The notes beneath the pieces are model-generated. The model was not told where the DNA came from. It did no database searches and worked only from the letters and a program-made list of their open reading frames with translations. This document shows, in pieces, positions 19,894 through 61,070 of a DNA stretch of 64,000 nucleotides. Position numbers and translations under genes: made by a program. The stretch covers positions 1-64,000 of the forward strand of contig ADNK01000413.1 of the NCBI GenBank assembly GCA_000320545.1, written 5' to 3'. The stretch comes from Bigelowiella natans CCMP2755 (lineage: Eukaryota; Protista; Cercozoa). Numbering within the stretch: the first letter of the stretch is position 1; every line of letters starts with the position of its first letter.

Positions 19894-19939
<46 letters not shown>

Positions 19940-21070: not shown

Positions 21071-21113
<43 letters not shown>

Positions 21114-27833: not shown

Positions 27834-29400
27834 TTGTTTCATTGACTGGTTGCTGTGCATGTCTAGCTAGCTAGCGATGTCAGCAGTGCGTCGCACCAGC
27901 TGCCTGTCTGCCATCACGATGTGCAAATGAACGGATGCAATGAACAAAATCAAACTTGTTGAATGTGGTCATCCTCATGATGTAGCTGTCCACGGTGCAA
28001 TGCAGCAGCTACGATGCGCACAGCGCTGCAATGCATCGTAGCCAATGTTGAATTTGCGTAGCCAGGCGCTTTCCAACACTGTGTGTCTTTGGCAATTTGT
28101 CAATTCGGCAAATTGCAATGCAATCACAGTGCTAGTCACCATGAGTCACAGAGGCCATGTTGTCGCACGCAAGCAAAATCCCTGATGTTGTCAACAATGT
28201 GTTCAAATTGTCTCTGCTGTGCAGCAACATGTCAACGACAATGCAACTTGCACTCACAATGTCAATGACAATGTGACTTGTGTTTGCACGATGTGTGTTT
28301 TGAAATCAATGATTCATCAAAGCACATTTTTGTAGGTGCATGCTGATGATTTTGAACAGATGGTGTTTGTGAGAATCATGCATTGTCAACAGCTGTGTGT
28401 GTCACATTGTTGACAATGTGTGTTCAGAACACACACTGCTGCAATATGACGCAGTGTCGACAGTGCATGTTTCATGCAAACTCACAGTGCACTCACGAAA
28501 ACGACAAAATGTCAAATTGTCATGATGTTGGCACGAGGCGGCGCTGCATGCTAGTCCAGCACATGGAGCATGCTGGCATGGTTTGCACGTGAGTGTCAAA
28601 TGTTGTGAGAAGCCACATGATGCATGTGTTGCTGCGCTAGTCCACGCATTGATGCTCGACTGTGCAGTCACAGCGAACACTTGCTAGCCTTGTGGAACAA
28701 CACGCATGCATGCATGTGACGACGCGAACGCGCAAGCGCATGTGATGCATGCATGCACTGCCCATCGCATCGTCACAATTTGGAGCGACATGCAACAATG
28801 ATGTTGCGTCACTAAATGCAACAACGCATTGATGACTTGATGACTGCCATCATGGACCGCGCAATGCAATGACGAATGACGACACGGAACCAAACAACGA
28901 CTGAAAACATAGCTAAATGAAGAGAAGCACGACATTGTGCTAGATCCGTCTTGCATTGTGCTAGCCATGACACGGTTGCATAGTGAGGCAATCTAGCAAC
29001 ACAGTGTCATTGCAAATTTAATGCGTGCATGCAACGTGTAGTTGTCATAAAACCATAGAGACAATGCCCTCATAGCTACGTTGCACATCAGAATCACGTC
29101 GCTGTTGTTGTCATTCTGCGTAAACCAATATGCACTATGGCACACGAAGCTAAGCTCGTGCTACGCGTATGCAGGGTGGCACTACGAATACGATGATGCT
29201 CAGAGATTACAAGTCAACAATCTAGGACGCGGCTGATGTGACGCTAGGGCGTGTCATATGCAGCGAGGCCACACATACATTACACATACTTATAAGTGAA
29301 CCATTTTTAGATGTATGTGCAACTACAGATGCGTGATAGTATCGTAAAAAATGAGTCATAGTTGATTACAAAAAGAGACAATGCGTATAGTAAATATCTA
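27834..29400. mobile_element. Decayed, TpA-depleted insertion flanked by a 13-bp direct repeat
   Basis: GAGCATTGATTTT at 27821-27833 and 29401-29413 brackets a TG/CA-rich, TA-poor tract with no recognisable coding remnant. Confidence 0.45.
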
Positions 29401-35484: not shown

Positions 35485-36615
35485 TCAATTGTCACCAGAA
35501 TTCGACACATAAGGCTTCGATGCCTTCGCACTGATGTGCTTCTTAAGATCTTCGATCTCTTTACGCATCATCTTCATTTTTTCTTCCTGCTCTGCGCATT
35601 TCTTTTTGAGCTGGTCTCTATCGGCTTGAAGCTTCATGTAGGCCTCGCTTATGTCCTGCTGCTGCCGGTACCTAGGTTCATTTAAATACCGGACGCCAAT
35701 ATCCATTGACTTGGGCTCCGGATTAGACTTGATCATCCAGTCGAAGATCCAGTCATCCCGATATGCACAATTCTTAAAGAGCTCAGAGAAGAGGGAACGA
35801 AGGTATATGTAGTTTGGTTTTTGGGAGAAGCGGAGCTCTTTGCAGTAGTTGAGGTACAGTGCGAACTCCTTTGGGAAACCCTTGCAGAGGGCCTCGACAG
35901 GGATGGATTCCTTGCGGTTTCCAATCTTATCGTATTTCTCCTGTTTGGTACGAGCTTTTAGGCCCTGCCATGGGAGTTTACCCAGGTTAAAATACATGAG
36001 CATATAGCCTAGAGATTCTAAATCATCACGTCTGCTCTGCTCTATTCCATGATGGGTGCAGATGCTGGCGTAGCGAGGAGTTCCTGTGAATTTTTTTTTG
36101 TCTCGGTACCGAATGTGCTCGAGTGTGGTCGGATGCATGTAGCGCTTACTTAATCCCATATCGATGGCAAAGAGGATTTTCTTGTTGCTGTTTCTGCCCA
36201 TAAGGAAATTGTCTGGTTTGATGTCACGGTGGAGGAAGAAGCATTTGTGCACGTGCTCAATACGATCAATCAACTGAATCGCAAGCATTAGTATCGTCTT
36301 CATGCTAAATTTACGACCGCATTTTGTATATAAAGATTCCAAGCTCTCCCCTAGAAGATCCATGACCATAACGTTGCATTTGCCAGCAGTGCCACACCAA
36401 TGCACGTTTGGAATGCCTGTTCCAGATTCTAAAGCTCTGTAAACTTTGTATTCGTACGTGAGCTGAGGATACTTTGTGTTTTTATTTTCCAATTTTATGG
36501 CCACAGGCTCCTTGGTTCGGACATTTTCTCCTAAATATATATCACCAAAGGAGCCGCTGCCGATTTTGTGCTTCATGCGATACTTCGTCTTGTTTCCTAT
36601 CAAAATCTCCGCCAT
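35485..36615 (-). CDS. CSNK1: Casein kinase 1 family Ser/Thr kinase, intronless
   Basis: [48 protein letters not shown] and LPWQGLKA; the DFG motif reads DMG. Confidence 0.95.
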
Positions 36616-37052
36616 CCTTGCTTTTCCTGAAAGCCTATGTGCTATCGATACTCTTTGTTGACTTCCAATTGCCCCCTTTGTCCCCCAGTGGACCGGCAGT
36701 AAAGCAGCACAAGGGGTTGGCGGCTTTTTGAAAGGGGTCGGGGCTACGACCTAAATGATGTGTGTCATTGTCCAGGCTCATGCCAAAAAAAGTCGGTACA
36801 GCACCCAACTATCGCCTATTTCTCCCCCGACTACCTTGTCGCATCAGGAAATCCTGCTGGAATATCAAATTAAAGGATTTTCCTCGAGGAAATTCCAGTG
36901 TACAAGGCTATCCCTGGCTAATTCCCCAAGACGGAAAGGAAGAGACGCCTACTTTTCCCATCACCCAGGAGAGAGTTGTAGCTCGCTTTTCCGTCCGAAA
37001 TACGCTTGATATCCCTGTCGCAGATACAGAACAGTCTTGATTTAAACTAAAG

Positions 37053-40859: not shown

Positions 40860-41811
40860 AGCGTGTGTTGCGAGGGTGTGCATTAATTGTTGCCATTTGA
40901 TGTGCACGCTGTCATACAAACGTTGCATGGTGCATGGCATCAATCAGCATAGACGACAATAGCGAGAATTGTGCAATGAGCAGAAAGAGAGGTAATTATT
41001 GTGGCACTCAATGATGCTCGCTACGTGCACACGTTCAGCTACGCTAGTACGCCACGCGCACGCGCATGCACATCGATCATGGCGGCAATTCTATTTGTAT
41101 GCGCAGAACGTTAATTGCGTGCGTGCACATGCTAATGTGTACGTGGAATGCACCAACACGACCAATGATGCAATCGATGAATGCCGCGTGCGCGTTGTTG
41201 ACGCCGACAGCAGGGGCGGGCACGCTAGCTAACAAGCACCGGAGCCTTGCAAGAGCTAGACAGCATGACAGCTGCAAGAGAGACGGACACAATGATCAAT
41301 CAAATTGAATTTGTTCAATGACTGGTCATCCTCATGTAGCTGTGCAGCAATGCTAGAATGCAGCGGCTAAGCGATGATGACAGACACAGTGACATCACAC
41401 ATGCAGAACACAAGTCACATCACAAGTGATCAAGTGACATCATGCACATGGCGGAGGAGCACACATTGCATTCACATGTCCATCATTCAGCGCTGTTGAT
41501 GTCAAATCTGTTGGTCTTCGCTGTGATCGAGCGTGTGACATTTCATGCAACAATGTGTTGTGACGACCACAGCTGTGACGATGGGCAACAAGTGGGGCGG
41601 TGCTCAGTGAGCAGTCTAGCAGTGCTGCTCTGGCTAGCTAGCACTGCTGCAGATTGCTAGATTGCCTGTGCGTGGCTGTCACTTGTGGCCGCCAGCTGGA
41701 GCACTGCAGAGCGCCATGCCAGAGCGCATGCATGCTGCAGCTCGCGGACACGTGCATGCGCATGCACTAGCGCTAGCTAGGACAATCAGCCACATGGAAC
41801 GCGCGTGTGCT
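40860..41811. other. TpA-depleted decayed repeat-like DNA flanking the left TIR
   Basis: Few TA outside CTA/TAG; contains a copy of the short dispersed repeat at 41278-41368. Confidence 0.6.
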
Positions 41812-42169
41812 GCAGCAGACTGCTGCACCATGCCCCACATTTGATTTCCCATCTGCCGTCAGTGGGGGAATGACACAAAATTTTCATTTCAAAAATTCAC
41901 CCACTGACGACCCACTGCTGAACTGAATTGCTAGAATGACATGGCAAAATTGCACGAGCATGACACGTCAAGTGTTCTGCATTTGATTTCCCATCAGCAA
42001 TCAGTGGCAAAATGTGCGAAAATGCGCAACATGAAAGCTTCACCCACTGACGACCTGCTGCTGAACTGAATTGCTGTGATGACATGATGAAAATCACAGG
42101 CACATCCCATGTGTTTTGTGAAAACAATCTTTGTTGAAAATGACATGGCAAAATCCACAGCAGAGCATC
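41812..42169 (+). repeat. Left terminal inverted repeat (~358 bp, with two ~143-bp internal subrepeats)
   Basis: Reverse complement of 60271-60627 with about 26 differences by eye. catttgatttcccatc recurs at ~41838 and ~41980. Confidence 0.92.
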
Positions 42170-42209
42170 GTTGAAAACACTGCAAACTTGTTCTCACGCA
42201 AAGTGATGA

Positions 42210-42941
42210 ATGAGAACATTTGAATCAAAAAAAGGAAAACCATCAGATGAATGGCTGACTGAAAAACAATTTGAATCTTTGAAAAACAAAAGATTTTTGC
42301 ATGTGACATCATCAAACATGGACACACACAAAAGAAAACCCACTGAAGAACTTGTTGTCAAACTTGGGCAAGGTGAGGGAACTCAGCCAGCATCAAGATT
42401 GAAAGATTGCATTTCACATCATGGTTGCACTGACTCCAAAAGACCTTGGATGGGTTGCAAATTGCATTGTTTGTTCGCAACAGAAAAGAATGAAAATGTG
42501 GCAGCAACAAACTCCATGGTTCATGAATGTGAACTCAAATCAAAACAGCATGCTGAAAAAAACAACTTGTTGGTAGACAGAGGCGATGAAAGGACATTGA
42601 CAAGATCAAGTGAATTGATTGGAACATTGGATTGCAAACAATTTGAAAAACTCACAGACATTGAGTCAAAACCTGCATGCAATTTGCGAAATGAAAAGCA
42701 GAAATGCATCGTTGAAATGTCAGACCATGCAAACAAAGCAAAGAAAAATGACCATCAAAAACCTGCTACCTTCAAAGTGAAACACAGTGATGGCAGTGCA
42801 GAAGGAACAATTGGAAATGTGTCACCTAATGATGTCAAATCAAAGAATTTTGACAAGTCATTTAGAGAACATTGTGAAAAATCAAATGACAAAGACAACA
42901 TCAAATTAGAAGATGAACATGTGAAACACCTTGGCATTTGA
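42210..42941 (+). pseudogene. Hypermutated viral ORF, possible T5orf172/GIY-YIG-like nuclease domain
   Basis: FL(H=Y)V...VVKLGQG...PASRLKD(C=Y)...RGDE pattern; zero Tyr in 243 aa. Confidence 0.4.
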
Positions 42942-43133
42942 TCATCTACTGAAACATCATGCACAGCCCATTTTGCATCTTCATCAAAATCAAATGGTTT
43001 TTTCATGATTTGCAATTTGACAAACAAATCACCATTTTCTGTCATCAACAACTTGTCAATTTTTTGCAATTTGTTCATCCTTTCTTCTAATTTTTTTGAT
43101 CGTTTCTCTAATTCCATTGTTTTCAACAAACAT

Positions 43134-43337
43134 TCAATGAGATTTGTTGTCATTGATGACAACAACAAAAATCACTTGCTCACCACACTTTTCAGTTGCC
43201 ATCTCGTGTGCTTCTTTGAAAGTTTCACCTGACACAAGGTTCATTCTCATGGAAGCCATGTGTTTTTTGCCATGATGCTTGCCATGAGCTGCTAATGAAT
43301 CTTTCTGTCTTTTGGTTGATTTTTTTGATGCCATCAC
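43134..43337 (-). pseudogene. Small basic His-rich viral hypothetical protein
   Basis: TKRQKDSLAAHGKHHGKKHM...GETFKEAH resembles a small protein seen in aquatic viruses (recall, not searched). Confidence 0.4.
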
Positions 43338-43352
43338 ATCACTGTGGATTTT

Positions 43353-44084
43353 TCATTTTGACAAAGGAACATCGTGTTTGTCAACCATCTTTTTGTCAAT
43401 GTTGCGAGATGGTCCACCAAACAGAACAGAACACAGACGGGCTCTGCTCCAAGACTCGGCACTTTGATTTGGACGACTTCCTCCAGAACAGTGAGCTCCT
43501 TTGCCTTTGTTCACAATTTCTCTTGAAGATTTCAAAGGAACATCCAAAACTTCAGTCACATTGGATGAGGATGCATCACCTTTGAAACACTTGTCTGCTT
43601 TTTGTGTCCATTTGGATTTCTTGCTTTTGAAACTTCTCAACTTTGGTCTGTTTCTGCCATGAAAAATGCTCTCTGTTTGTTTTTCCCCATCTTTTTTGCT
43701 CAACGATTTGGGCACATGCTTCTCATTGATGCTCATCTCACATTTTTTAACAGCATCTTGAACTGCTTTGCTGTTCATCCATTCACATCCGGCATCTGAA
43801 CCCCACGAAAGCCAAGCCACAGCACCTCTTCTCTCATTTCTTTGTGATTGGTCCATCGGTTTGCCATCATTTTTCCATCTGTCGCATCCTGGTTTAGATG
43901 TGCATTTGTGACGAGCGAACCAAGCATTCACAACAATGACATCTTCAACATCCATGGCATCGTCATGTGCTAATTGTTCAGCTCTTTTCATTCCTGTTTC
44001 AATCGTGCCTTTCCAATTCAGCTTCTTTGATTTCAATGCTATTCGGGCTTTCTTCCTCACTTTCATTGGCATTTTCAATTTCAT
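43353..44084 (-). pseudogene. Hypermutated two-domain viral ORF: phage-like RA.QLA/AW..WG.D.G domain followed by a DUF5824-like giant-virus domain
   Basis: (H=Y)VPKSLSKKD, RPKLRSFKSKKS and KGKGA(HC=YY)SGGSRPNQSAESWSRARL; zero Tyr. Confidence 0.6.
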
Positions 44085-44653
44085 TGTTCAATTTGAGAAG
44101 ATTTTTTGCATGCTTTTCACAAAGAATGTGTTTGTCATGACATTTTTTGATCACAAATCCATCACAGAAGGGACAACACATTTTGAGAATGTGTTTGTCA
44201 CAATGTTTTTTGGTCACAAATCCATCACAGAAGGGACAATGTGTTTCATCGTGTTTCGTTTCATCTTCATGACAATCTCTCGCACAAGCATTGATGCAAT
44301 CTCCATCATCTGTTCCATGTTGTTTCATGTCTCTACCTGGAACATTTTCATTGACACATTTTCTTTTCATTTTTTCTTCAGCTGTTAGTTCTGCTTCTTT
44401 CTTTCTTTTCTGATGAACAGATATTTTTTTGGCATCCTTTTCCAATGACTTCAAAAGGTGAACCTTCAACATTTGATTCATTGCAAGTTCTGCCACCAAT
44501 CTTGACTAATCGGTTGGTGTTGATGTTGCATCCATGACCATTTTTCATCTCTTTGTTTTCAATTTTAGCAAAAAGCTTTTGCAAGTTCTTTTTTTGAAGA
44601 GAACTAAACTTTCTAAATTTTTTCAAAAAACTTTTCATTGTGTCATCAGACAC
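43999..44653 (-). pseudogene. Hypermutated, frameshifted viral ORF with two tandem CPFC..H zinc-finger-like repeats
   Basis: CPFCDGFV(T/I)KK..DKHI occurs twice; 63-bp-period direct repeat at 44123-44243. Confidence 0.5.
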
Positions 44654-45778
44654 ATCATCATCACAGATTAGATTTCTTCAAGTGAGAATTGAACGAATGA
44701 AAATTTGAAAAAAAACCACAGTTTTTTTGAGAGTTTTGAAACGACCACAAAATGGTTCAAAAAGAAAAAATCTGCAGCATCACAATGAGCGAAAATGTTG
44801 TTGGCGGAGCAACTCTAAATCCCAAAGGATTGAACAAAATGTTCAAATCCAAAACTTCAGGATGTGTGAAAGAATGCCACAAAAAGAACTCTCAAAAATG
44901 GCTACGAAAGGCAGAATGCAAAGCCTGCAATTGCATGATTGGATTAGCATCACTGTCTCGTCACAAAAGAACTGAAAAAAACACATGCTCAATGGTGATC
45001 CTAATCCATCCGAAGAGCAGAAAAAATTTGTAGATGATCATGAATGTGTCAAGTTCAGGAAATGCAAATTGGTCAAATTGGAAGAAAAATCAGATTTTGT
45101 CATGAAGAAATCAGAAGAGTTAGGAAACAAAACACAATGAATGCAATTTTGTGATCATCATGATTGCCATCATGATCACAAAATGACATCATGAACAAGT
45201 TGAACATTGACAGTTTTTGTTTCATGACCATTGATGTCATCATTGTGATTGTCAATGTCCTCAAATCCATCATGCCAAGATGGTCCACCACATTGTTCTT
45301 TTTCTTCAACATCTGGTTTAGCAAGACCAAGTTCAATCAATGTGTCTCCATTTTGTCCCTTGTGATTGTCAATGTTCTTCACAAATGCTTCTACAGTTTC
45401 ATCATCAACCTTTGGTTTTGTTGGAACTTTTTCATCCTTGTCATCATTGCTCATCACAACATGACTGTGCATTTCACAATGATTTCAAACGAACATTGAT
45501 CAAATGATGCTGTCATGCCATCAACTTTTTTAGGAACCTTTGGAATTTCTTTTTTCTTCTTTTCCTCCTCTTTCATTTTTGGTTTACGAACATCCTCAAA
45601 ATGTTTCTTGTTGTGTTCACTTGTCTTCTCTTTTTTTTCTTGACATCTCTTCTTTTGGTGTGCTGTCATTTTTTCTCTGTTTGGTTTGTGACATGCTTTT
45701 TGTTTTTCCTCATCAGACATTTGTCAAAACAGTTTGGATTTTTGCATTTGAAAAAAATGATCTCAACTCAATTGACAT

Positions 45779-47008
45779 GTGAGCAATTTGAGAGAAACAG
45801 AAAAAAGGTTCACACGACAGTGGAACAATTGTTTTCCATTGATGGAAGAAGATGGAAAAGGAAATGAAGTTCCAAGTGAAGTCAATGTTGATCATCTTCT
45901 TTGGATGATTTTCAATGAAGACTCCATTGGAGGTGACAGAAAACTTGTGGTGAGAAAAACTGACACTGCGGTGATTGGTCCAATGACAGAAACAAGAACA
46001 CATTTGTCGAACATGGAAAAGAATTCAATCACATGTGCCAATGACAACGGATTTGACATCAGTGATCCAACAGAAGATTCAAGAACACCACCAAGAGCAC
46101 AAACACCGCCAAAAATGACAAGAACACCAGCACCACCACCATCTAGAAATGGGTCAAGATCATCAACACCATCGCCAAGAGGACCAGCACCAAGAGGACC
46201 AGCACCAGGAGGACTAGCACCAGCACCAGCACCAGCACCAGCACCAGCACCAGCACCAGAAAACAGACAACAACAGATGGCACAAGAAGCAAAACTACCA
46301 GCATTAGCAAGATCATCTGGTCGTGATGTTCCAACACAAGCAACACCATCACAAAGATTTGACCAACAACCAGGTTTCAGTCCAACCCCAGTTGTTCCTG
46401 CAACGGCACCTGCTGGATTTGAATCAACACCAGATGACACAGGTGAGAAAAAATTGACAGATTCATCTTTGAAAGAAATGAAAGAACATGATGATTTTCA
46501 GAGACCGCTACCTGATGTTTCAGAAAGACAAAATGCAATCTGTCAGACCAAGATGAGGCAAGGATTGATCCAAGAAGCAACTCATCCATTCGGAGGTAAA
46601 CGTGATGTGACCAATGAATCACAAATCAATTGCAATGCTGATCATGAAAACCCATTCATCAAATCTCAAGCAAGATTGAAGGTGAAAGAAATGGATGACA
46701 CGAGCATCACACACAAACCTCAATTGCAAGAGGCCATTGATGATGCCAAACCATCTGCTAAATTGCCAGCAAAGATGGCCAATGTGAAAGCACTAAAAGT
46801 TGAAGTTCCAGTTGAACCTCCGTTCAAAGCAAGAGGTTTTGATCCAAAGGAATTGCGACCTGCATTTGAAATCAATTGCACTCACGGCATGGTGCCTCAT
46901 CACATGTCTCAAGCATGCAAAAAGAAGAAAGATGAAGTAGCAGATGTGCATGCTGCTCACATCAAATCAAAACAAATGAAAGATGCTTCTGATTTGTTTT
47001 TTCAATGA
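45779..47008 (+). pseudogene. Hypermutated viral ORF with Pro/Ala (GCACCA)n low-complexity linker, unknown function
   Basis: 409-aa ORF with zero Tyr and an APAPAPAP repeat at ~46215-46260. Confidence 0.5.
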
Positions 47009-47033
47009 AAATGACTCAAAGATGTGAACACAC

Positions 47034-47639
47034 ATGAACACAATGAAACATGTGCCAGATCATGCCAAAGGAAAAATTTGCAAACTGCACATGTCAGGAA
47101 ATGAAGATTCAATTTGTCATGGTTCTGCCATTCAAAGTTCAAGTGTGAGATCATCTGGTCATAGAAAAAATTTGAAATGTTGGAAAAAGGGTACAGGTTC
47201 ATTCATGACATCATTTGAATCATTGGAAAATGAAAATGCAATCACAACCCTTGTTGAAAATTTCCCTTGTGATTCTGAACATGAATTAGAAGCCAGAGAA
47301 CGATTTTGCATGGAAAACAACAAATGCATCAATGAAAATGCACCCACAAGAACTGCAAAAGAATGGAGAGAAACAAACAAAGAACGATCAAAACAATGCA
47401 GACAAGATGACAAAGAACGAATGGCAAAACCAAACAAAAAATGTCATGAAGATGACAAAGAATTGTCAAAGGAAAAAAGAAAAGAACACTTTGCGAATCA
47501 CAGAAAAAAGAACAAAGAAAAATTTGAAGAAAAAATCAAATGTCCCTTCTGTGGTTGTTCTGTTGGAAAATCCAATTTGAAAAGACATCAAAGAACCAAA
47601 AAATGTTCAAAAGCACAAGAAGAATTCAAACAAAAATGA
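47034..47639 (+). pseudogene. GIY-YIG endonuclease (NCLDV/PLV type) with C-terminal zinc finger, hypermutated
   Basis: GKI(C=Y)KL...I(CH=YY)GS...R..GH, LVENFPCDS..EL.ARERF(C=Y) and CPFCGCSVGKSNLKRHQRTKKC. Confidence 0.8.
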
Positions 47640-47665
47640 ATGTTTGAAATGATTGTCGTTTCATT

Positions 47666-48451
47666 GTGATTGTCATCATCCATTGCAATCACAATGTGAC
47701 CAATTCTGAAAAGGGCAAATGCAAAAAATTAGACATGAAACCAACAATGACAACCAAAAAAAAACAGATCCACAACAATTGCAACTTGACACCTTCGTTT
47801 CCAAACAGATGCTCATTCACAGCTCCAACAGGAAGTGGAAAATCAGTGGTGATGGCAAATTTGTCAACTCGTAAAAGACATTCAAGAAACTTCTTTGATG
47901 TTGTTTTGTTTCACTCTCCAAACGTTCACTTTGAAGACGAACGTGCAGAAACAAAGGCAAAAAATGAAAAAGCAGAAATGAAATTTGAAGAAAAGTTCAA
48001 AGAGAAAGAGTTTGGAGCCATGGTTCATGAAGTGATGCGAGAACAAAAAGAACTAAAAGACAAAAAGAAACACATGAAAAAAACATTGACAATCATTGAT
48101 GATTTCGCTTCAGATGAAAAAGTGATGAAAAGTGAAACATTGAAAGATTTGTTCTTTGCTGGTGGAAAATGTGGTGCATGTGTTTGGATCACCAGTCAGT
48201 GTTGCAAAATTGTTTCTCCTGATGTTCGCACAAATGCCGAACATTTGATTGTTTTTAGCAGACAACCTTCAACTGAATTGAAAAAGATGGCTGAAGAAAT
48301 GTCAACAGGCAAATGCACTGAGAAAAAAATTGTGGAAACACTTGATGAAATGTCTTCTGTGGATCATTCATTTCCACATTGCAATCGCAAGCAACCAATG
48401 AATGAAAGGTGCATGATCAATTTTCAAAGTTTCATGAACATCCAAACATGA
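47666..48451 (+). pseudogene. A32/FtsK-HerA-type viral genome-packaging ATPase, hypermutated
   Basis: Walker A APTGSGKS; Walker B TIIDD; LFFAGGK...WITSQ..KIVSPDVRTN motif region; zero Tyr in 261 aa. Confidence 0.85.
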
Positions 48452-48707
48452 TCAATGTGGATGAACTTTTGCCAGAATCACATTCAAAAAAATCAGGAAC
48501 AAATCATCATCATTTGACAGTCGTCCAAAAAAAAACAGCAAATCCTTTTTCACATTCAAAAAAATCAGCTGTCATGGTCCCAGCTGTCAAACCTGCTGGT
48601 TTTTTTGCGAGAGAATTTGTGAGAAAAGAAGTGCCTGTGAGCATCAAACGAACATTTGAAAGGTGTCAAATGTCAATTAATTGTCATCTAAACGTTGACA
48701 ATGACAC

Positions 48708-49271
48708 ATGGGAAATGACAATTCTTCACCACCAAAACCAAAACCAATCCACATTCCAAAGCCACATTTTCCAAAACCAAAACCAATGCATGTTCCAAGA
48801 ATTCCCACAGAAAAAGCAACTAAGCCTGTGAACAAAGGAACAAAAAAAGGAGCAAATCATCTTGAAGACAAACTGACACATCCAGTTGCTGCTGCAAATG
48901 AAGCTGAAGGAGCATTGAGTGAATTGGATTCTGTGTCTCACGGCAGTCTTGGTGTTGTGCATCAGGGATCTCAAGTTGTGTTTCCACAATTTGGATTGGC
49001 CGTCACATTGGCCACTGTAGCAGATGAAATGGCTCACAATGATGGTGAGTCATCAAAAAAAACATCAAAAAACATCTCATCAAATCAGGCTACAGGAGGT
49101 GTTTGTGGTGATTGTCAAAGTGTCAGAACCATTGAAAAATCAGAGCTTGTGACTGAAATGGAAAACAAATTCAATGCAGATTCACACGACTCACCAGATG
49201 TTGATGGAGCAATTCCAGTTTCTGTGGAAGGCAAAATTTCTGTTGATGATGCGACCAGAAAACTCAGATGA
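48708..49271 (+). pseudogene. Hypermutated viral ORF, unknown function (MGN start, PK repeats)
   Basis: 187-aa ORF preceded by TCTA at -21; zero Tyr. Confidence 0.5.
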
Positions 49272-49683
49272 ATCACTTTTTCTCATCTTCTTTGATTTCA
49301 GGACTTGGCAGAAATGTTCCAAGTGTCAGAATGACAACGTTTGAAAAAGCATTTCTTTCTGCTACATTTTTTGCTGTTGCAACTTGAAGCACACTGAATG
49401 TTGAAACACTGAACATTGCACCAGATTTCAGGAAAAACTCTGAAGCCCTTTTGTCAGAAGTTGAACAACAAGACTGGTGAGCATCAATGTGTTTTTCATC
49501 CTCTGATTCTTTTCTGTGTGGCATCTCTTCCATCATTCTGTCTTTGCATTCTTCAGAATCATTCATGTCTGCAACTTTTTGTTGTTTTTCATCTGCTTTG
49601 TGTTCGATGGATTGTGGAACAATCATTGCAAACAGTCACAAACAAAATGCCACAATGATTTTTTTTCTGTTCTTGTGATGACA

Positions 49684-50578
49684 ATGGGATCATTTGATGA
49701 GATGAAAGATGGATTCAAAAAGGCTGTTAATGATGTGCAAAAATCATCAGGGCATGCAACAAAGCAAATCAAAAAAGACTTCACAAAAGCAGGAGATGCT
49801 GTCAAAGATGTGTCTGTCATGGCAGGTGATGAAATCAAAAAAGGAGCCCATGAAGTTGGAGATCAACTGAAAAAACAAGAAGTCCAACAGGCACTCGCAG
49901 GGACTGGAATTGCTTTAGCTAATGTTGCTACTGGAGGGGCATTTGCTCCAGAATTAATGGCAGGTGGATTAGCAATTCAAGGTGCCATTGAGTCAGCACA
50001 TTCAAAATCTTTACCTCATGACACTGTGCTGCAGGCAGGAACCGCATGTGCCACTGGTGAATTAGATTTTAACAAAAGAGGACCAGGTGTTGGTTCATTT
50101 AGCGAAGGTATTTCTAATTTGAGAGAAGAAGGTGTGAAACGATTTGATGGTGTTGAAGATGAATTATCAGATGAAGCTATGAAAAGACATGATGATGTAA
50201 AAGGCAAAGCATCAGCAAGATTAGGATTTGATCCAACACAAATGCAATCTACAGATGAAGCTATGGATTCATTAAAAGCACAAATTGACAAAAATAGAAA
50301 TATTAGAGCAACAGCTAATGGATTTAAGAAGTGGAAAAGCATTAGAAAATTTAACAAACAAAGCAAAAAGTGAATTAAAAAAAGAAGTAAGTAGTCAAGG
50401 CAATAAAATACTAAATGATGTTTTAGGTAAAGTGTCTCAAAAGAAAAGCAAAGTGAAAAAAGCCATGAAAAAAGTTAAGAAGAAGATGAAATCTTCTAAA
50501 GGCAAAATGGCTGATGTCATTAAAAAGGTGAAACAAAATCAACAGAGATACAGAATGTCAAGTGGCATTGTGAATTAA
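49684..50578 (+). pseudogene. Viral ORF with Gly/Ala hydrophobic segment and basic C-terminus, probably frameshifted near 50290-50370
   Basis: MGSFDEMKDGFKK...ALAGTGIALANVATGGAF; the overlapping ORF 50285-50578 continues with K-rich sequence. Confidence 0.45.
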
Positions 50579-50646
50579 AAAAAAAACACATCATGAAAAA
50601 ATTACATTCGTTTTGATACAATTTTTTTCATCTACACATTGTTAAC

Positions 50647-52311
50647 ATGGATGCAATTAGTGAAACTACCGATGTTAGTAGATTTCCAGAAATCGACTAC
50701 AGTTTACCCCCTATGGATAAAATTTTCATTGATTCAGTCTCTCATTTTAGAGAAGAGATGAAAAATAGTAACAATGCTAAAAAAGCGAATACCAAAATGA
50801 GATTTTTTGTTCCAGCTCAACAAAGAGCAGTAGACCCATCTGAATTACATTTTCAATTAAATGTTGCTGCCAGAACAGCTGGAGATGCTGATTTACCAGC
50901 GGTTGACCAATTAAGATTAAGACTTGCTGAAGGTGGAGTTCATTCTCTCTTTAGAGAGATGATCATTAGAGATGGTAGAGGTAACATCATTGAAAAAATT
51001 AACAACTATGACCTTGTTACTAAAATTTTACAAGATACTTTGTTGACTAAAGAAGTTAAAAATAATTTGTTAAATGTGGAAGGTGTTCATGATGACCAAG
51101 GATTGTTCAACACAGTTCATAGCAAATTTGATATTACTGGTAACACCTTAGAATTAAAAGCACCTGTGGCTCAGGTCGTAGCTGATACTCTTCCAGCAGG
51201 TGCGGCTGATTTTCCCGCAGCCAATGCTGCTCCTGTTGCTGCTGTGACCACTCCCGCTTCACCATCAAGAGTACTTGGTGTAGGAACTCAATTCTTAACT
51301 GAACTAAGACCAGGTTCTGTTGTTAAATTCAATGGAAACAGTTACACAGTTGCCCATGTTGTATCTGACACAGAATTTGTATCTGCTACTAACATTGCTG
51401 CTGATGTTGCTGCTGCTAACATTGTTGCTGGTAGAGATTTTGTTGAAGGATTACTTGAAACAGAAAGTCGTTACAAAAAATTCCATCACGATGGACTTTT
51501 TACAGCAGATGGAGCTGTTCATTGCTTTCAGCCATGCTGCTCTGGGTTTTCATCTCAAAACAAATACCTTCATCTTGATCATTGTGGTGGGTTAGAATTT
51601 GAATTTACTTTAGATAGCAATGCCATGATTTTCGATGATGCTAATGCAGCAGGTAATGCCAATATTTTCATTAAACAAGGATATGTTCATCACACTGCTC
51701 TTGAATTTTCACCAGTTGTTGAAGCTGCTCTTGCTAAAGCATATGTGAGAGGTTTATCTATGAGTTTCCCTGTGTACCATGTAGTTAGTGGAACACAAAA
51801 TGCTTCTACCTCTGTTTCTCAGGAATATCAAGAAAGTTTAGCAATTCTTGAAATGGTTAAAATTGTTAGTAGACCAACTGGGTTTGATGCAAATGCTGGA
51901 GCATCATTTTTCTTTGAAGATCTAACCAGTGCTAAAAGAATTTACTGGGAGATCAACAAACAAAGATTTACTGAGTGTGGCAATGATGACATTTTACCTC
52001 AAGTTGTTTTTGTGAACAACAGAATCGGTAAAAATCTATTAGGAGATTACAAACATGCTACAATTTCTTATGGAGAATTCAAAGAAGCAGGTAAATCTGC
52101 TTTAATTTTCAATGCGCAAAACTACAAAGAAGGTAATTACACAGGAGTTAACACCAACCGAGCAACTATGAGACTTAAAATTGAAGGAGGAGATGGTGTT
52201 GGTTCTTTACAACCTGGTATTGCTAATCAAGGTAGACAAATCGATGTGTTAATGATGCACGAGCAATACATTATGTTAAAAGATGGAGAAAGTGTGACAG
52301 TTCGTAGCTAA
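50647..52311 (+). CDS. Major capsid protein (PLV double jelly-roll type) with internal insertion
   Basis: MRFFVP...VDPSELHFQLNV and GGVHSLFREMIIRDGRGNIIEKINNYDLV match the N-terminal PLV MCP pattern; 554 aa; lies directly upstream of the penton-like gene. Confidence 0.78.
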   Translation: MDAISETTDVSRFPEIDYSLPPMDKIFIDSVSHFREEMKNSNNAKKANTKMRFFVPAQQRAVDPSELHFQLNVAARTAGDADLPAVDQLRLRLAEGGVHSLFREMIIRDGRGNIIEKINNYDLVTKILQDTLLTKEVKNNLLNVEGVHDDQGLFNTVHSKFDITGNTLELKAPVAQVVADTLPAGAADFPAANAAPVAAVTTPASPSRVLGVGTQFLTELRPGSVVKFNGNSYTVAHVVSDTEFVSATNIAADVAAANIVAGRDFVEGLLETESRYKKFHHDGLFTADGAVHCFQPCCSGFSSQNKYLHLDHCGGLEFEFTLDSNAMIFDDANAAGNANIFIKQGYVHHTALEFSPVVEAALAKAYVRGLSMSFPVYHVVSGTQNASTSVSQEYQESLAILEMVKIVSRPTGFDANAGASFFFEDLTSAKRIYWEINKQRFTECGNDDILPQVVFVNNRIGKNLLGDYKHATISYGEFKEAGKSALIFNAQNYKEGNYTGVNTNRATMRLKIEGGDGVGSLQPGIANQGRQIDVLMMHEQYIMLKDGESVTVRS

Positions 52312-52428
52312 TTTCATTTTTCTATCAATCATTCCAATCCTTTGGGATTTGGAGTTGCTTCGCCAACATTTGTTGTTAAATTCCACCAAAATTTATATCA
52401 TGAAAATTTATTTCTAATATAAATTAAT

Positions 52429-53145
52429 ATGAAACAACACAAAATTTATTTTAATAGCAAAGATAGAATTACTGGAACAACCAATAATTTAAATTATCAA
52501 TTAAATAGTGTAATTGATAATGTATCTTCTATTTCTATTACAAGAGCAAGATTTCCAATTACTTGTTACAATGTGTCAGCTAAAAATAACATTTTAGAAA
52601 TTGAGAATAGTTCTGGAAACAAAACAAGTATGGAATTAACAAAACAAAATTATGGTGCTACTGAATTAGCAACAGAATTACAAACTAAACTTTCAACTAA
52701 TGCCTCAACAGTAGGAACTTTTACTCCTGTGCACAATGCTAAAACAGGAAAATTTAGCACAGGTTGTAGTAATAGTTTCAAAATAATTAAAAACGAATGC
52801 TCTAAATTTTTAGGTTATAATGACACTACACCTCTTTCTACATTGCATGTAGCAGATAATATGAGTAATCTATCACCAAAACCTGTTTACATTCAAACTG
52901 ATTTACAACTGGATACAGAATTAGCAGGTCAATTGTCAAGTGTTGTGCATGAAGTCTCTGGCGATGTGTCTTTTGGTAGTATCTCATATGATAATGAGAA
53001 ACCAAGTGAAAGGATTGAATTAATGAAAAAAAAGAATGTAAGCAACTTAAAATTTACACTTGTAGATGGTAATGGAGATGAAATAGAAAATAATGGTACA
53101 GATCATTCTATGATGGTATCTTTGTTTTGTCAGACTAAGGAATAA
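52429..53145 (+). CDS. Minor capsid (penton-like) protein
   Basis: IYFNSKDRITGT..L...IDNVSSISI..ARFP...YNV...NN, NY...ELA.ELQ and LKFTLVDGNG..IENNG.D.S match PLV/virophage penton patterns. Confidence 0.75.
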   Translation: MKQHKIYFNSKDRITGTTNNLNYQLNSVIDNVSSISITRARFPITCYNVSAKNNILEIENSSGNKTSMELTKQNYGATELATELQTKLSTNASTVGTFTPVHNAKTGKFSTGCSNSFKIIKNECSKFLGYNDTTPLSTLHVADNMSNLSPKPVYIQTDLQLDTELAGQLSSVVHEVSGDVSFGSISYDNEKPSERIELMKKKNVSNLKFTLVDGNGDEIENNGTDHSMMVSLFCQTKE

Positions 53146-53175
53146 GAAAAAAATATCTAATCATTATTAATAAAA

Positions 53176-54738
53176 ATGAGTGTTAGTATTACAGGTGAAA
53201 ACATCCCTAACCCTAATGTATCTGGTGGAACAAACAATGATAACAATTCTTCAGCAGGAGGCATAGTTGGGATTACAAGCAATTCGAATGACATTAATTT
53301 TGATGAAGGAGTTTCTGTGAATGGCATAAAATTTCAAAACACAGGAAACCAAAACGGACTTTTTATGGGTGTTGATTTGTCTGGTAATTCGTCTATGGAA
53401 ATGGTCTCTCCAACAACCTACATTGATTTTGTACATCAATTAGGTTCTGATTATACGAATCGTGTTCTGTCAAAAAATGACGGTATTCACTTCACAGGGG
53501 ATTTACACATGGGCATTATTAGACCTAATTATGTATCTTCAAGTACAATAACATCTACGAATGGAACTTTTAATGCTATTAATTTAGACGGTGTCCCTTT
53601 GAATCCAAGAAATTGTTTAGTTCACGGGATTACATCTGACATTGTAAGTGGAAACATGAAATTTACTATGAATTCTAATTTTCAAGAAAAATTAACAACA
53701 TTAGGCGATTATGATCTGTCAAACAAAATAACAAATGATGCTACAAATGGTTTGATTGTTAATGCTAATAATGTTAATGATGCAAGTGTTTTATCAACCA
53801 AAGTATCAAAATTTTCTTCATCTGTATCAGGAAAAGAACCAAAAATATTAAGTATTGACAATGATTTACAATTAGCTAATCATTCAGGTACACCTCAAAT
53901 GCGATTCAAAGATAACAGTGGCAATGTTCAAATTTCATGTAATGAATTAGAGTTAACAGATAATGTAGGGGAGGTAAAATTAAAGATCTTAGAAAAAATA
54001 AATAATGTAGAAACAAAAACAACAACAACAGAAAACAAACTTAATCCAATTACTTCATCTAACAACGAACATCAATTTTCAAGTTCCATTTTTGTAAATG
54101 GTTTGAGAAGCACAACACAACCTCATATCGATGGTATTCATTTAGGAAAAGATGTTCATAATGGTAGTAGCATTGAATTCGTTAGTCCAACATGTTACAT
54201 TGATTTCGTTCATAACAATTCAGGGACAGATTATGCGAATCGTATTTTATCCAATAATGATGGAATTCACATCACAGGGGATTTGCATGTTTTCAATACA
54301 AAAATTGCTGGAGATGTTACATTTCAAGGTTCATTGTTATCGAACACATTGACAGATTTAACAAATGGATTAAATGCAATTGAAGCATTAGCTATGAGCA
54401 ATAGCAACAATGTTCAAAATGGATTTAGCAATGTAAATGTCCCTATTGTAAGAGTCATTAATAATTCATCTACTGTTGTTTTCTTTGAAAGTGGTAATCA
54501 GCCACCTTTTTACAATCCTCGTGTAGAAAATGGTAAATCTACCGTTTTAGAACATGCTTCAAATGTTGTGTCATTAAATGTTCGTTCATCATCTCCATCA
54601 TGTAATTCATTTAATCTCACAGCAGACAAAGCAGTTAGCATAAATTCTGGTTCTGATCCTAATATGCCAACTGGGGCACAACATAGAATCGAATTGAATG
54701 GTCTGAATTTTGTAACCTTTACAATTTTCAATCCATAA
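53176..54738 (+). CDS. Asn/Ser/Gly-rich putative virion fibre protein with a duplicated ~50-aa module
   Basis: SSMEMVSPTTYIDFVH...DYTNRVLSKNDGIHFTGDLH is repeated as SSIEFVSPTCYIDFVH...DYANRILSNNDGIHITGDLH. Confidence 0.6.
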   Translation: MSVSITGENIPNPNVSGGTNNDNNSSAGGIVGITSNSNDINFDEGVSVNGIKFQNTGNQNGLFMGVDLSGNSSMEMVSPTTYIDFVHQLGSDYTNRVLSKNDGIHFTGDLHMGIIRPNYVSSSTITSTNGTFNAINLDGVPLNPRNCLVHGITSDIVSGNMKFTMNSNFQEKLTTLGDYDLSNKITNDATNGLIVNANNVNDASVLSTKVSKFSSSVSGKEPKILSIDNDLQLANHSGTPQMRFKDNSGNVQISCNELELTDNVGEVKLKILEKINNVETKTTTTENKLNPITSSNNEHQFSSSIFVNGLRSTTQPHIDGIHLGKDVHNGSSIEFVSPTCYIDFVHNNSGTDYANRILSNNDGIHITGDLHVFNTKIAGDVTFQGSLLSNTLTDLTNGLNAIEALAMSNSNNVQNGFSNVNVPIVRVINNSSTVVFFESGNQPPFYNPRVENGKSTVLEHASNVVSLNVRSSSPSCNSFNLTADKAVSINSGSDPNMPTGAQHRIELNGLNFVTFTIFNP

Positions 54739-54782
54739 TTCGTTTAGAATGAAAAAAAAATACATAGTCATATTGTAATCAT

Positions 54783-55163
54783 GTGGATAATGTTAGTAAT
54801 GTTAGAGAAACTTTAAAAGGTTATAGAGTTACACAATTGAAAGAATTGTGTCGTGAAGTAGGAACATCTCAATGTGCCAGAAACAAAAAAACTTTAATGG
54901 ATAGATTGACACCTATAGTTCTAAAAAGTGCTGGATATGAAGTCGTTTCTATTGAAAAAGAAGAAGAGGTAAAAAAACCAGCTAAAAAAATCAAAAGAGT
55001 TCCAGTTAAAAATAGTGTTAAAAAGAAAGAAGAGGAAAAAGTAGAGGAAGAAAAAATTAGTCTTGAATCAAAAGAAGATAGTAATGATGAAAAAGTAAGC
55101 ATAGAAATAGAAGAAGATGGTAATGATGAAAGTTCAGTAACAGAATCAGATGTAGAAAATTAA
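54783..55163 (+). CDS. Small SAP-like motif protein with acidic tail
   Basis: YRVTQLKELCREVG...NKKTLMDRL resembles SAP/HeH DNA-binding motifs. Confidence 0.45.
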   Translation: MDNVSNVRETLKGYRVTQLKELCREVGTSQCARNKKTLMDRLTPIVLKSAGYEVVSIEKEEEVKKPAKKIKRVPVKNSVKKKEEEKVEEEKISLESKEDSNDEKVSIEIEEDGNDESSVTESDVEN

Positions 55164-55355
55164 CTCTGTTCATGTAATGGGAGGAACAATAATTGTTTTA
55201 TTAACTTTAGGTGCATGTGTGATGATTGGACACATATTTGGTAGAGTGTCGGCATCAATTACTGATTTAGACCCTACTAACGATTATTTGATTGTGAATT
55301 AAAAAATTATTTTTTTGAAATTTTGTTTATAAAAATTATCTAAATCTTTATAACT

Positions 55356-55964
55356 ATGAGTTCTTCTACCGCACATTTCCGTAATTCAGTTTTAATTGAT
55401 GGATTACTTACCGGTCCTACCATTGTTAGAATAGACACCGAAAAAACTGCTGTTCTCAGCAGTCTTAATCAACAAATTTCTGACTTTCAAACAGCAGAAA
55501 CAAACAATGCTCAAGCAAGAGCAGATTTGCAAAATCAAATTGATGATGCTAATGCTTCTATGACTCAGGCTATGGGTGATTTAACCCAACTTGTTAATGA
55601 CAACAAAGCAGACATTGAAGGTAAATTAGCAACAGAAACTAATGAAAGACTTTCATTAGCAAGTGAAGTAAGCAACAGAAATGCATTTGTAGATGGTGAA
55701 ATTACCAGACTTGACCAACAACATGCTGATGATGATGCTAGACTTGCAGCTGTTGAAGCAACACAAGCTACTTTTAATTCAGATGTGGAATCTAAAATTC
55801 AAGAGAGAATTGATGCTCACAATGCTGATCTTGATAATACCCTTCCTCGTTTAGCAAAATTAGAAGAGTGTTTAGAAACAGATGAATCTGATCCTGCTAA
55901 TCCAGTCGTAAGAATTAAAGGAGGTGTTAAATTTGAAGTAAGTGGTGATTTCGTCCAAGGTTAG
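55356..55964 (+). CDS. Coiled-coil putative virion fibre protein
   Basis: Heptad-like Q/D/A-rich helix; C-terminus VRIKGGVKFEVSGDFVQG; TCTA at -17. Confidence 0.55.
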   Translation: MSSSTAHFRNSVLIDGLLTGPTIVRIDTEKTAVLSSLNQQISDFQTAETNNAQARADLQNQIDDANASMTQAMGDLTQLVNDNKADIEGKLATETNERLSLASEVSNRNAFVDGEITRLDQQHADDDARLAAVEATQATFNSDVESKIQERIDAHNADLDNTLPRLAKLEECLETDESDPANPVVRIKGGVKFEVSGDFVQG

Positions 55965-56011
55965 ATTGCAAATGTGATTTAAACAACATATAAAAAATCT
56001 AACAATTAATA

Positions 56012-56258
56012 ATGATGTCTAATATTAAAAGGTGGTGGTGCTTTTTTCAAAGAAACACCTGCAATAGCAAACAATGTAGTAGGTCAAACAATAGATACTA
56101 TTAATCAACAATTAAACGATAATAATACACAAAACACAGAAAATAAATTACAACTTGATTTTTCAAAAGAAGTTTTTATAATAGACAAAGAAAACAAAAC
56201 TATTACGATAAATCCTGAATGTAAACTCATTGTGCCTAATGATTTAATTCAAGGATAG
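56012..56258 (+). pseudogene. Short paralog of the preceding ORF, frameshifted after the start (not in the ORF track)
   Basis: The frame reads KGGGAFFKETP...TITINPECKLIVPNDLIQG*, ending like ...SGDFVQG*. The ATG is out of frame across an A-run. Confidence 0.45.
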
Positions 56259-56297
56259 TTCGTTTAAAAATAGTATAGTTTTTTGTAGTCATAAGTA

Positions 56298-56490
56298 ATG
56301 ACTATAAGAAAAGTGTATTTTTATGGATTAACATGTTTAAATACAAGAGAAACATATATAGGTTCTACTACTATGGATCCAAAATTAAGATTACAAATGC
56401 ATGTCGCTAATTTTAGAGCACATGAAAAAGGTTTTGGTAATTTTTGCTCTTCGTATCAAATTTTAAAAAGAGATAATTATATGTTTAAAG
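56298..56490 (+). pseudogene. N-terminal half of a GIY-YIG endonuclease, truncated
   Basis: VYFYGL...TYIGSTT...RLQMH...CSSYQIL, followed by an abrupt switch to helicase sequence. Confidence 0.7.
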
Positions 56491-57744
56491 TTAAACAACG
56501 AATGTAAATACATAAGAAAATTTGATATTTCACCACATGATGTTATATGCTTTGATGAGGTTTATATATATTCACTACATCAACTATCAAAAATTAAGTT
56601 ATTTATGGATAAGCATGTTGATAAAAAATTTATTGCTACTGGTGATTTAGCTCAATTGGATCCCATTGAAAACGAATATCTGTTTAACAACATCAAAGAC
56701 CTTGATGTTAGAACAACTGAAGCTATGAATGATATGTTCCCTAATCAAATCACTCTTAAAATCTGTAAGAGAGTAAAAACAGACGAGGAAAGAAATACTC
56801 TTGCACGATTAAAACAAGAAATATTTGATGTAAAAACTAAACCATTTGATGTGCTAAAAAAATATTTTAAAGTTGTTGAAAGTATGGATAAAGTAAAGAC
56901 TCTTAACAATATTACCTTCTACAACTTTAGATCCCGTTCAGTAGGTAAGTATATCCACGGTCTACAATAGAAACCGAGAAAAAAAGTTTATGTAGATGGT
57001 ATTTGCTACTATGCTGGTATGGAGATTGTGTGTAAAAAATATAATAAGAAACCAAAACTATATGTGAACTATGCTTATGAAATTGTTAAAGTAAGTAAAA
57101 AAGAATTTGTAATACAGGATGTATGTGATATGGAAGAAATAAGAATTCCTATAGAATTAATTAGTAAGCATTTTAGATTATCATATGCCTCTACCTGTCA
57201 TAGTTTCCAAGGATTATCAGTAGATGGCCCTATCACCGTATTCGATACTAACACCTGTAGAATTAATCGCAAGTGGCTCTGGACTGCTATAACTCGTTCA
57301 ACTGACCTATCACAGATACAAATATATCAGCACAGCGATAAAGAATGCTACAGATTAAAAGAAAGTATGATTTCTCAAAAACTACGAATGAAAGTATCTT
57401 CATATGAATCTCAGGACAAAAGAGCTGGTAGAACTTGGAAAGATAAAGAACATATTGATGAGGAATGGATAAAAAGAACTGTTAATAATCATCCACAATG
57501 TCCTGTGTGTAGATGTGGATTTACTGCTGATAATGTTTCTGTGGATAGAATTGATAATGCTCAACCTCATCTGTGGAATAATTGTAGATTGACTTGTGTG
57601 GAATGTAATCTTAGTAGAAATAATCAACAGACTTACCCAGCATTTGGTGAGTACACCCCTCAGGATGTTGAGTTTGAAGATGGCTTTGAGGATCAATGGG
57701 TGAAACCTGGGTACGAAAACACCATCACTGGGCTGGAGCTTTGA
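56491..57744 (+). pseudogene. C-terminal fragment of an SF1 helicase plus HNH-like domain (PLV replication protein), with in-frame stop at 56968-56970
   Basis: VICFDEVY (Walker B), ATGDLAQLDPI, YASTCHSFQG, WTAITRS, then CPVC...VDRIDNAQPH..NNCRLTCVECN. Walker A is absent. Confidence 0.78.
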
Positions 57745-57991
57745 GGCATCGTGTGCCCCGAAAATTTGACATTTAATGTCTTTGCCACATCAGCCACACG
57801 TGTCAGTTCTTCACCGGAGACTCTCCCCGCTGCTGGGCATTCCGGGATGAAAATGGGAGTCCCTAATCTTCGGACACTAACGGACACTAACGGGCAATAC
57901 CGGTAATACTCCCGGTAATGCTCTTTCCGGGGATTCGCCGCAACGAGAGTCTCCCGTGAAGATCTTCACTCCAGACTCGAAATCAGACTCG

Positions 57992-60270: not shown

Positions 60271-60627
60271 GATGCTCTGCTGTGGAATTTGCTATGTCAT
60301 TTTTAACAAAGATTGTTTTCACAAAACACATGGGATGTGCCCGTGATTTTCATCATGTCATTCTAGCAATTCAGTTCAGTAGTAGGTCGTCAGTAGGCAA
60401 ATTTTCATGTTGCGCATTTTCGCAATTTTTGCTACTGATTGCTGATGGGAAATCAAATGTGGGTCACTTGACATGTCATGCTCGTGCAATTTTGCCATGT
60501 CATTCTAGCAATTCAGTTCAGCAGTAGGTCGTCAGTAGGTGAATTTTTGAAATGAAAATTTTGTGTCATTCCCCCACTGACGGCAGATGGGAAATCAAAT
60601 GTGGGGCATGGTGTAGTAGTCTGCTGC
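60271..60627 (-). repeat. Right terminal inverted repeat
   Basis: Reverse complement of 41812-42169; retains more TpA than the left copy. Confidence 0.92.
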
Positions 60628-61070
60628 GCACACGATGCATGACGTGAGCAGCTTGTCTAGCACATGGCCACGGCGACCAGGCTAGCTAGCTAGGCCTGCG
60701 CATGTGCTGCGCATGCGCAGCGCATGCACGCCGCACGCAGCGTAGCCGCCATGCTGCGCACGCTAGCACACGTGCTACGCACTGCTGCTCCAGCTGGCCA
60801 GTGCTGTTGGACTGCACATGTGCATTGCTAGATTGTGACGGACCATTGAAAAAAGTGACAGATCATTTCATTGCATCCGTCTCGCTACCATCTCGCACTG
60901 ATGAAACTTCATTGCTGCTAGCTCTAGTTAGCTAGGGCTAGCTAGTCAGCAGCACGTGCAGCAGCTGCTGTTGCGATCGTGCACATCTTGCGAGAGCGCA
61001 GCTCATTCTCATTGGTGCAACAAACTAGCAATCAAAAACATGTGTCTGCAACATGCTGCATTGCTTTTGC
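60628..61070. other. TpA-depleted, CTAG-rich flank to the right of the element
   Basis: gctagctagctag runs; virtually all TA in CTA/TAG context. Confidence 0.6.

Follow-up and report, generated by a model that had tools for sequence, protein, structure and literature searches.

Introduction

In Bigelowiella natans, direct measurements have revealed that viral inserts are hypermutated at TpA (Mettrop et al., bioRxiv 10.64898/2026.01.13.699255). According to this preprint, 231 of 302 new nuclear mutations fell into two inserts, one derived from a giant virus and one from a virophage, and 230 of the 231 were A>G or T>C transitions, all of these at TpA dinucleotides, which are still present in the inserts (0.45 for the first). 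Its main target is single-copy, and repeat-induced point mutation (RIP) is named there as a comparison. Moreover, an ADAT2 homologue with residues linked to DNA editing was proposed on the basis of prediction, and 124 TpA-poor clusters were reported for B. natans (Mettrop et al., bioRxiv 10.64898/2026.01.13.699255). The locus described here shows the same changes, i.e., TpA to TpG or CpA on either strand in DNA of viral origin; the preprint deals with new mutations, whereas here the end state (TpA at 0.07 of expectation) is seen in a polinton-like element. The main text of the preprint, supplements aside, mentions no polinton-like virus, flank ranking, bounded tract or split-gene control, and its figures or supplementary tables may list this very tract or the flank data. 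A literature search returned no other paper on the TpA process.

Polinton-like viruses of B. natans (PLV-Bnat) were first named transpovirons (PMC5499653). As far as described there, they share with the present element a stand-alone GIY-YIG nuclease, a superfamily 1 helicase (its HNH tail is likely here) and terminal inverted repeats around 15–25 kb (18.8 kb here). Their capsid gene, the candidate minor capsid gene behind it and their packaging ATPase would correspond to three frames of the present element that are assigned to these functions only tentatively. Unlike in PLV-Bnat, a 12-kb inversion splits the nuclease and the helicase genes here, and a 63-bp duplicate is present that is absent from the homologues found.

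A>G changes behind a 5′ T or U connect the locus to ADAR, APOBEC and TadA-derived DNA adenine editors. ADAR acts on RNA and favors a 3′ G, which is disfavored here, and APOBEC leaves same-strand clusters. Such clusters, as expected from APOBEC/ADAR-type processive editing, are absent (23 of 60 neighboring changes on the same strand, 29.7 expected). Fungal RIP is likewise host-driven and dinucleotide-specific; its transitions inactivate repeated or foreign DNA and reach past the edges, as do the changes seen here. However, RIP converts C to T and thereby creates TpA, whereas here TpA is lost (61 losses versus 2 in reverse), and homology does not set the load of edits, which differs between the two halves of one gene and between the two inverted repeats.

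The 63-bp tandem duplicate in this element is a new instance of the already known process; it is real, was read correctly in an initial annotation of the sequence, and confirms by an independent route what one preprint describes. Because the TpA process had already been measured directly, the duplicate, which had been proposed as an internal control, is an illustration of TpA editing and not its first control. Taken alone it adds little; the split gene, the sharp edge of the edited tract and the flank ranking are the parts worth following.

A broken and probably polinton-like element

The window, i.e., the whole stretch of 64,000 nucleotides that was analyzed, contains an element of 18.8 kb end to end with terminal inverted repeats (arms of 366 columns), which is likely a broken polinton-like virus of B. 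natans. Its features are, in window coordinates:

41804..42169, plus strand: left terminal inverted repeat, more edited than the right one (92.6% identity over 366 columns)
60271..60634, minus strand: right terminal inverted repeat, pairing with the left arm
43353..43970, minus strand: saturated DUF5824 gene with approximate start, following the nuclease on its downstream side (PF19141, E 4.5e-10; same order in metagenome contig L001)
43999..44445, minus strand: C-terminal part of a GIY-YIG nuclease, TpA-saturated, containing the duplicate (tblastn with P0001–P0007; DNA alignment to L001)
47028..47639, plus strand: second, distant GIY-YIG-like frame with Cys/His tail, saturated (27–28% identity to homologues)
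47648..48451, plus strand: P-loop ATPase frame, likely a packaging ATPase (Walker A motif; Pfam ATPase E 0.0016, under the cut-off)
50647..52311, plus strand: likely major capsid protein with light editing (14 of the 22 conserved Tyr retained)
52423..53145, plus strand: candidate minor capsid protein, by position only (DUF5901 E 2e-4, under the cut-off)
56298..56492, plus strand: N-terminal part of the nuclease (residues 1–65), lightly edited (72–78% identity to P0001–P0005 and P0007)
56493..57744, plus strand: C-terminal remains of a superfamily 1 helicase, likely with an HNH tail (UvrD_C_2 29 bits, cut-off 27.4), truncated at the right inversion breakpoint

The Pfam scan gave no hit for the capsid frame, and its predicted fold has a pLDDT of 37; its Atlas features match viral clusters at 0.96–0.97, one set of them with PF04451/PF16903. 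The nearest named relatives are two Bigna1 gene models with 83–84% identity and no Tyr; further copies within the organism of the window fall into the same identity range, and the host is likely B. natans. Placement of the host by the RNA-binding protein and ribosomal protein L26 of the window reached only the level of eukaryotes. While the capsid frame of the window holds 15 Tyr, P0009 and P0010 hold none and four environmental capsids 23–27. Cys or His occupies 17 of the 20 scored Tyr columns in each Bigna1 copy, but none of 20 conserved Arg columns in three copies. Among 25 element frames, no Pfam hit to a protein-primed polymerase B or a retroviral-type integrase was obtained, a search whose sensitivity is lowered by the editing.

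Each inverted-repeat arm carries an internal direct repeat with a period of about 142 bp (76–78% identical; 41831-42086 and 60354-60608). Between the arms, 57500-60270 is a GC-richer part with an intact frame of 562 residues (58495-60183), which contains a P-loop-like motif and matches no Pfam family. In three sequencing runs, 41851 is joined to 57574, suggesting that a short derivative exists that consists of the inverted repeats and the 57500-60270 part.

Two reciprocally edited copies of a 63-bp unit

The duplicate lies within the minus-strand frame 43999-44505 and consists of two head-to-tail units of 21 codons each:

44123..44185, minus strand: copy 1, in frame, the second unit on the coding strand
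44186..44248, minus strand: copy 2, with five reciprocal TG/CA sites and one lone A/G relative to copy 1

The 63-bp period, the start of the duplicate and all sequence strings given in the initial annotation are present; homology, however, continues five bases beyond the proposed end at 44243, giving exactly two in-frame periods (44123-44248). As read from the window sequence alone, the two units lie in tandem. The copies are identical at 52 of 63 columns. Of the 11 columns that differ, ten pair up as five reciprocal TG/CA sites, one more than the four noticed before, as 44184/44247 had been overlooked. In the order copy 1/copy 2 these pairs read TG/CA at 44138/44201, CA/TG at 44141/44204, CA/TG at 44177/44240, CA/TG at 44179/44242 and TG/CA at 44184/44247. 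The eleventh difference, at 44150/44213, is an isolated A/G that does not belong to the TpA type; a second change beside an edited site was considered as its source and rejected (0/21). When 11 transitions were placed randomly on the unit, five such swaps arose in 1 of 200,000 trials. Both TA and CG are absent from both copies.

On the minus strand, the units translate to KKHCDK and KKCHDK, as had been stated. Zinc-finger repeats had been suggested; the protein is instead a GIY-YIG nuclease that carries a Cys/His motif near its C-terminus. A protein search gave two hits among 66 candidates, whose clusters comprise seven sequences (P0001–P0007). PF01541 scored above the cut-off in all three homologues scanned, the Cys/His motif lies at the C-terminal end, and P0006 is a C-terminal piece. 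All seven natural homologues contain a single unit with Tyr-Tyr, reading KKYYDK in P0001 and P0003 and KKYYNK in the other five. This comparison had been called for by the initial annotation, which restored KKYYDK and ancestral TpA and named CG, with Arg in place of Tyr, as the competing ancestor. As Arg occurs in none of the seven, the comparison favors TpA.

On the DNA level, the nuclease is encoded by L001, a 1959-base metagenome contig that was the one locus among 358 pattern matches in a metagenome scan, and that has a TpA observed/expected ratio of 0.84. Neither the capsid nor P0001 had a match in IMG/VR. With 73–85% identity to the window, L001 represents a sister and not the ancestor, which accounts for an off-pattern background in the alignment. 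Under the unit it carries TA at eight of nine sites, namely at four of the five discordant sites and at four further sites at which both copies share one product; none of the nine sites is CG. A different codon stands in L001 at the fifth discordant site, where P0001 and P0003 have Ile, which fits TA and not CG, since CG would give Thr. Ancestral TpA at the sites of the duplicate is therefore nearly certain, and the duplication very likely preceded the editing.

Polarity, strand use and context of the changes

The 808 ungapped columns of the tract that align to L001 contain 75 TpA of L001, of which 33 are TG, 28 CA, 4 TA, 0 CG and 10 other in the window. The 11 CpG of L001 in the same columns give 1 TG, 1 CA, 4 CG and 5 other (Fisher P=7e-5 versus TpA). 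Conversely, 61 of 158 TG/CA of the window align to TA and 2 to CG, and TpA was lost 61 times versus 2 changes in the reverse direction. Both strands are used equally (33 TG, 28 CA, P=0.61), as the initial annotation had supposed; that adenine is the base being hit was its assumption. Editing stops once the TpA is destroyed, also as proposed before, with no CG product among the 75 TpA and no TGG among 21 edited TAA.

A-to-G changes depend on the 5′ base (T 62/150, C 10/91, A 14/212, G 4/99). A strand preference for TAY or RTA was rejected, because hits by 3′ base (21/46, 19/48, 12/19 and 9/17) follow no clear pattern. Same-strand runs of edits were rejected as well: neighboring changes lie on the same strand in 23 of 60 cases versus 29.7 expected. 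In sum, the changes are polar from TpA to TG/CA, use both strands equally, yield no CG and do not cluster by strand. Off the pattern remain the 10 other outcomes among the 75 TpA, the lone A/G at 44150/44213 and the absence of TA from L001 at one of the five discordant sites.

A bounded tract and an inversion that splits the nuclease gene

The edited part of the element and the rearrangement that it overlaps are:

41140..49915, no strand: TpA-depleted tract, crossing the left inversion breakpoint (change points 41135-41165 and 49890-49915)
44447..56492, no strand: segment inverted relative to the intact gene order (L001 runs from 56491, plus strand, to 44445, minus strand)

The tract comprises 8.8 kb and is sharply bounded; it starts roughly 660 bases outside the left arm of the inverted repeats. 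Its TpA observed/expected ratio is 0.07 in 42171-49700, compared to 0.74 in 50601-57500 and 0.66 in 1-27000, so that foreign-derived DNA is edited while host genes are spared. Beyond the 49.9-kb edge the ratio climbs unevenly from 0.57 beside the edge to 0.92 at 57 kb. CpG is at 0.28 in the tract, 0.42 in the light part of the element and 0.91 in 57501-60270. No Tyr occurs among the 1703 residues of seven tract frames, compared to 53 among 2080 in seven frames outside; all seven tract frames end in TGA, whereas the five outside frames examined end in TAA or TAG. Because all Tyr and all TAA/TAG stops are lost, saturated copies are mis-annotated or missed, and can be recovered by comparison with relatives that are unedited.

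The 12-kb inversion splits the nuclease gene, of which only the half inside the tract is saturated. In tblastn, the remainder after residue 65 lies at 44445-44002 on the minus strand, and L001 625-1149 matches window 55972-56491 at 85%. The joint 44446/56493, on opposite strands, occurs in contigs of runs X1, X8 and X18. As the gene is joined in L001 and in the contigs of these three runs, the window carries the segment of about 44447-56492 in inverted orientation. TpA is retained at 43 of 65 positions in the N-terminal half of the nuclease and its upstream DNA (527 columns) versus 4 of 75 on the C-terminal side (P=5e-15). TpA density is matched across both breakpoints, with 7 and 13 per kb at the left and 91 and 110 per kb at the right. 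The breakpoints of the window itself and the 49.9-kb edge are spanned by none of the contigs listed. If the window represents one molecule, editing of the tract followed the inversion, and the tract is set by position; we regard this order of events, on one molecule, as probable. The inverted repeats again point to position and not sequence, as 11 of the 12 TA in the right arm correspond to TG or CA in the left arm and none changed in the opposite direction. Thus, the split gene and the repeat pair each present like sequence with a very different load by position, which bears on how the targets are found.

Upstream of the nuclease, 56016-56258 aligns to L001 670-912 with one-base gaps, indicating a frameshift difference in a small frame.

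Other copies in sequencing runs

The matching rows listed number 20 and come from 15 studies; one of them may be the source of the window, and no RNA run is among the matches listed. Words of 41800-51700 were found at 75–81% in 18 DNA runs among those listed. In three runs, the element has many relatives, whose differences from the window are mostly transitions; in run X1, 1023 contigs align to the element, 662 of them under 99% alike (1396 transitions versus 279 other differences). Among the best-supported rows, 44491-2 and 44503-4 imply that copies with TA and copies with CA exist where the window reads TG. The edited pieces 43622-44009 and 46921-47995 occur letter for letter in three runs, and other copies are edited where the window is light, as in the capsids P0009 and P0010 without Tyr. 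The copy junction of the duplicate is spanned by none of the contigs listed. In one RNA run, of which about 6 in 100 were read, mean depth is below 0.7 over 42.3-56.9 kb; this run was not used as evidence.

One contig of run X1 has 23 dissimilar bases in place of 86 within 44119-44206 and is thereby shorter by 63; this contig is a diverged relative with a single unit in the same organism.

Flank ranking of surviving TpA

TpA survival depends on the flanking bases. In the tract, 46 of 53 surviving TpA are CTA or TAG, whereas the light part has 222 such sites among 585 TpA (P=3e-12), and relative survival is 0.18 for CTA/TAG versus 0.018 for the remaining TpA. Slower loss of CTA/TAG and confinement to a bounded tract are thus direct observations. 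In three GC-richer edited patches outside the element, CTAG makes up 30 of 46 surviving TpA, compared to 53 of 1280 in 1-27000. Hits at CTA/TAG sites, pooled from L001 and the inverted repeats, are 9 versus 11 by strand. Protection of one strand is thereby rejected, and, as both strands are slowed equally, the slowing belongs to the site. The CTA/TAG/CTAG ranking offers a fingerprint for the proposed enzyme.

The three patches outside the element are smaller than the tract. One, 27500-28800, is a second TpA-poor patch among host genes (0.19 of expectation), in which 15 of 17 surviving TpA are CTA/TAG, 8 of these CTAG; it is likely an edited repeat. The flanks beyond the inverted repeats keep only CTA/TAG, mostly CTAG (13 of 13 in 41140-41803 and 16 of 16 in 60635-61100), and the element therefore sits between edited sequences. 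A blastn comparison of these two flanks found no homology.

Mechanism and alternative explanations

Overall, the observations are best explained by duplication of a TpA-rich unit followed by a host process that edited each TpA once, a reading to which we assign a probability of about 85%. The 63-bp unit would have been duplicated while still rich in TpA. A host DNA adenine deaminase, probably of the ADAT/TadA (tRNA-deaminase) kind, might then strike TpA on either strand; the deaminated adenine would be copied as G, and one daughter would fix TG or CA. As such a site would no longer be a target, single hits could add up over many cell divisions, and the five discordant and four concordant of nine sites would represent independent even-odds hits after the duplication. 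The tract itself may be set by chromosome position, likely as a silenced chromatin domain laid down after the inversion. Both the enzyme candidate and a possible defence role against integrated viruses are adopted from the preprint (bioRxiv 10.64898/2026.01.13.699255).

TG and CA are also the textbook products of CpG decay, in which a methylated CpG would be deaminated to TG or CA in each copy, and CpG is indeed depleted in the tract and in the light part (0.28 and 0.42, versus 0.91 in 57501-60270). The lower value in the tract indicates that some CpG decay may contribute. As an account of the duplicate, however, it is very improbable: Arg is found at the Tyr-Tyr motif in 0 of 7 homologues, L001 has CG at 0 of 9 sites, only 2 of the 158 TG/CA of the window derive from CG versus 61 from TA, and 0 of 20 capsid Arg columns changed to Cys/His, whereas 17 of 20 Tyr columns did in the Bigna1 copies. 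Even less credence is given to a virus that was TpA-poor before integration, e.g., by avoidance of host or viral restriction. That CTAG is rare in the light part as well, with 1 site in 6.9 kb, would agree with such a history, but free relatives keep TpA and Tyr (0.84 in L001; 23–27 Tyr in environmental capsids), the two gene halves and the two inverted repeats differ in load, and the loss of Tyr in the tract, including those of the catalytic type, is total. An assembly artefact, joining separately edited copies at the duplicate, the inversion or the sharp edge, would leave the TpA editing real but not the order of events. It would be in line with the many relatives in the same organism (1023 contigs in X1, 662 under 99% alike), the single unit in seven homologues and in one diverged X1 contig, the intact gene junction in three runs and the sharpness of the edge at 49.9 kb. 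Homology of exactly two in-frame periods, the matched load across both breakpoints, the uneven rise of TpA from 0.57 at the edge to 0.92 at 57 kb and the exact edited pieces in three runs, one perhaps the source of the window, make it rather improbable.

The chemistry is less clear-cut. Since TpA is palindromic, A>G is inseparable from T>C, and damage to adenine, damage to thymine and polymerase errors look alike in the sequence. Instead of adenine deamination, the thymine of TpA might be modified or misread, or an eta- or iota-like polymerase at the silenced insert might place G opposite T. Polymerase eta favors A>G behind T or A, and the equal slowing of both strands at CTA/TAG (9 versus 11) resembles recognition of a duplex site. 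Here, however, ApA is spared (14/212, near the 4/99 of GpA), which is narrower than the polymerase eta pattern, and same-strand runs as from a repair patch are absent (23/60, 29.7 expected). The ADAT2 homologue of the preprint, a prediction based on residues linked to DNA editing, also speaks for a deaminase. A thymine- or polymerase-based origin is hence considered unlikely, albeit a serious contender, and adenine deamination is held, with modest confidence, to be the chemistry.

Returning to the host process acting on TpA, it is tempting to speculate, at less than even odds, that chromosome position, and neither sequence nor homology, directs the mutator, and that it reads double-stranded TpA with a ranking of DTAH, CTA/TAG and CTAG. 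The domain may, equally tentatively, spread from the edited repeats at the left end, cross the inversion breakpoint and stop inside a gene. If true, the genome would be defended by an editor that chromatin guides to adenines in double-stranded DNA and that obeys a flank code.

Other genes of the window

Dynein heavy chain exons with microsatellite-rich introns occupy 5801-22723 on the minus strand. A frame of 1242 codons (23995-27723) ends in a long Glu/Lys/Ala repeat array with periods of 60, 75 and 345 bp. Further genes encode a protein kinase (35485-36750), a HABP4-type RNA-binding protein (61399-62355) and ribosomal protein L26 (63688-63999).
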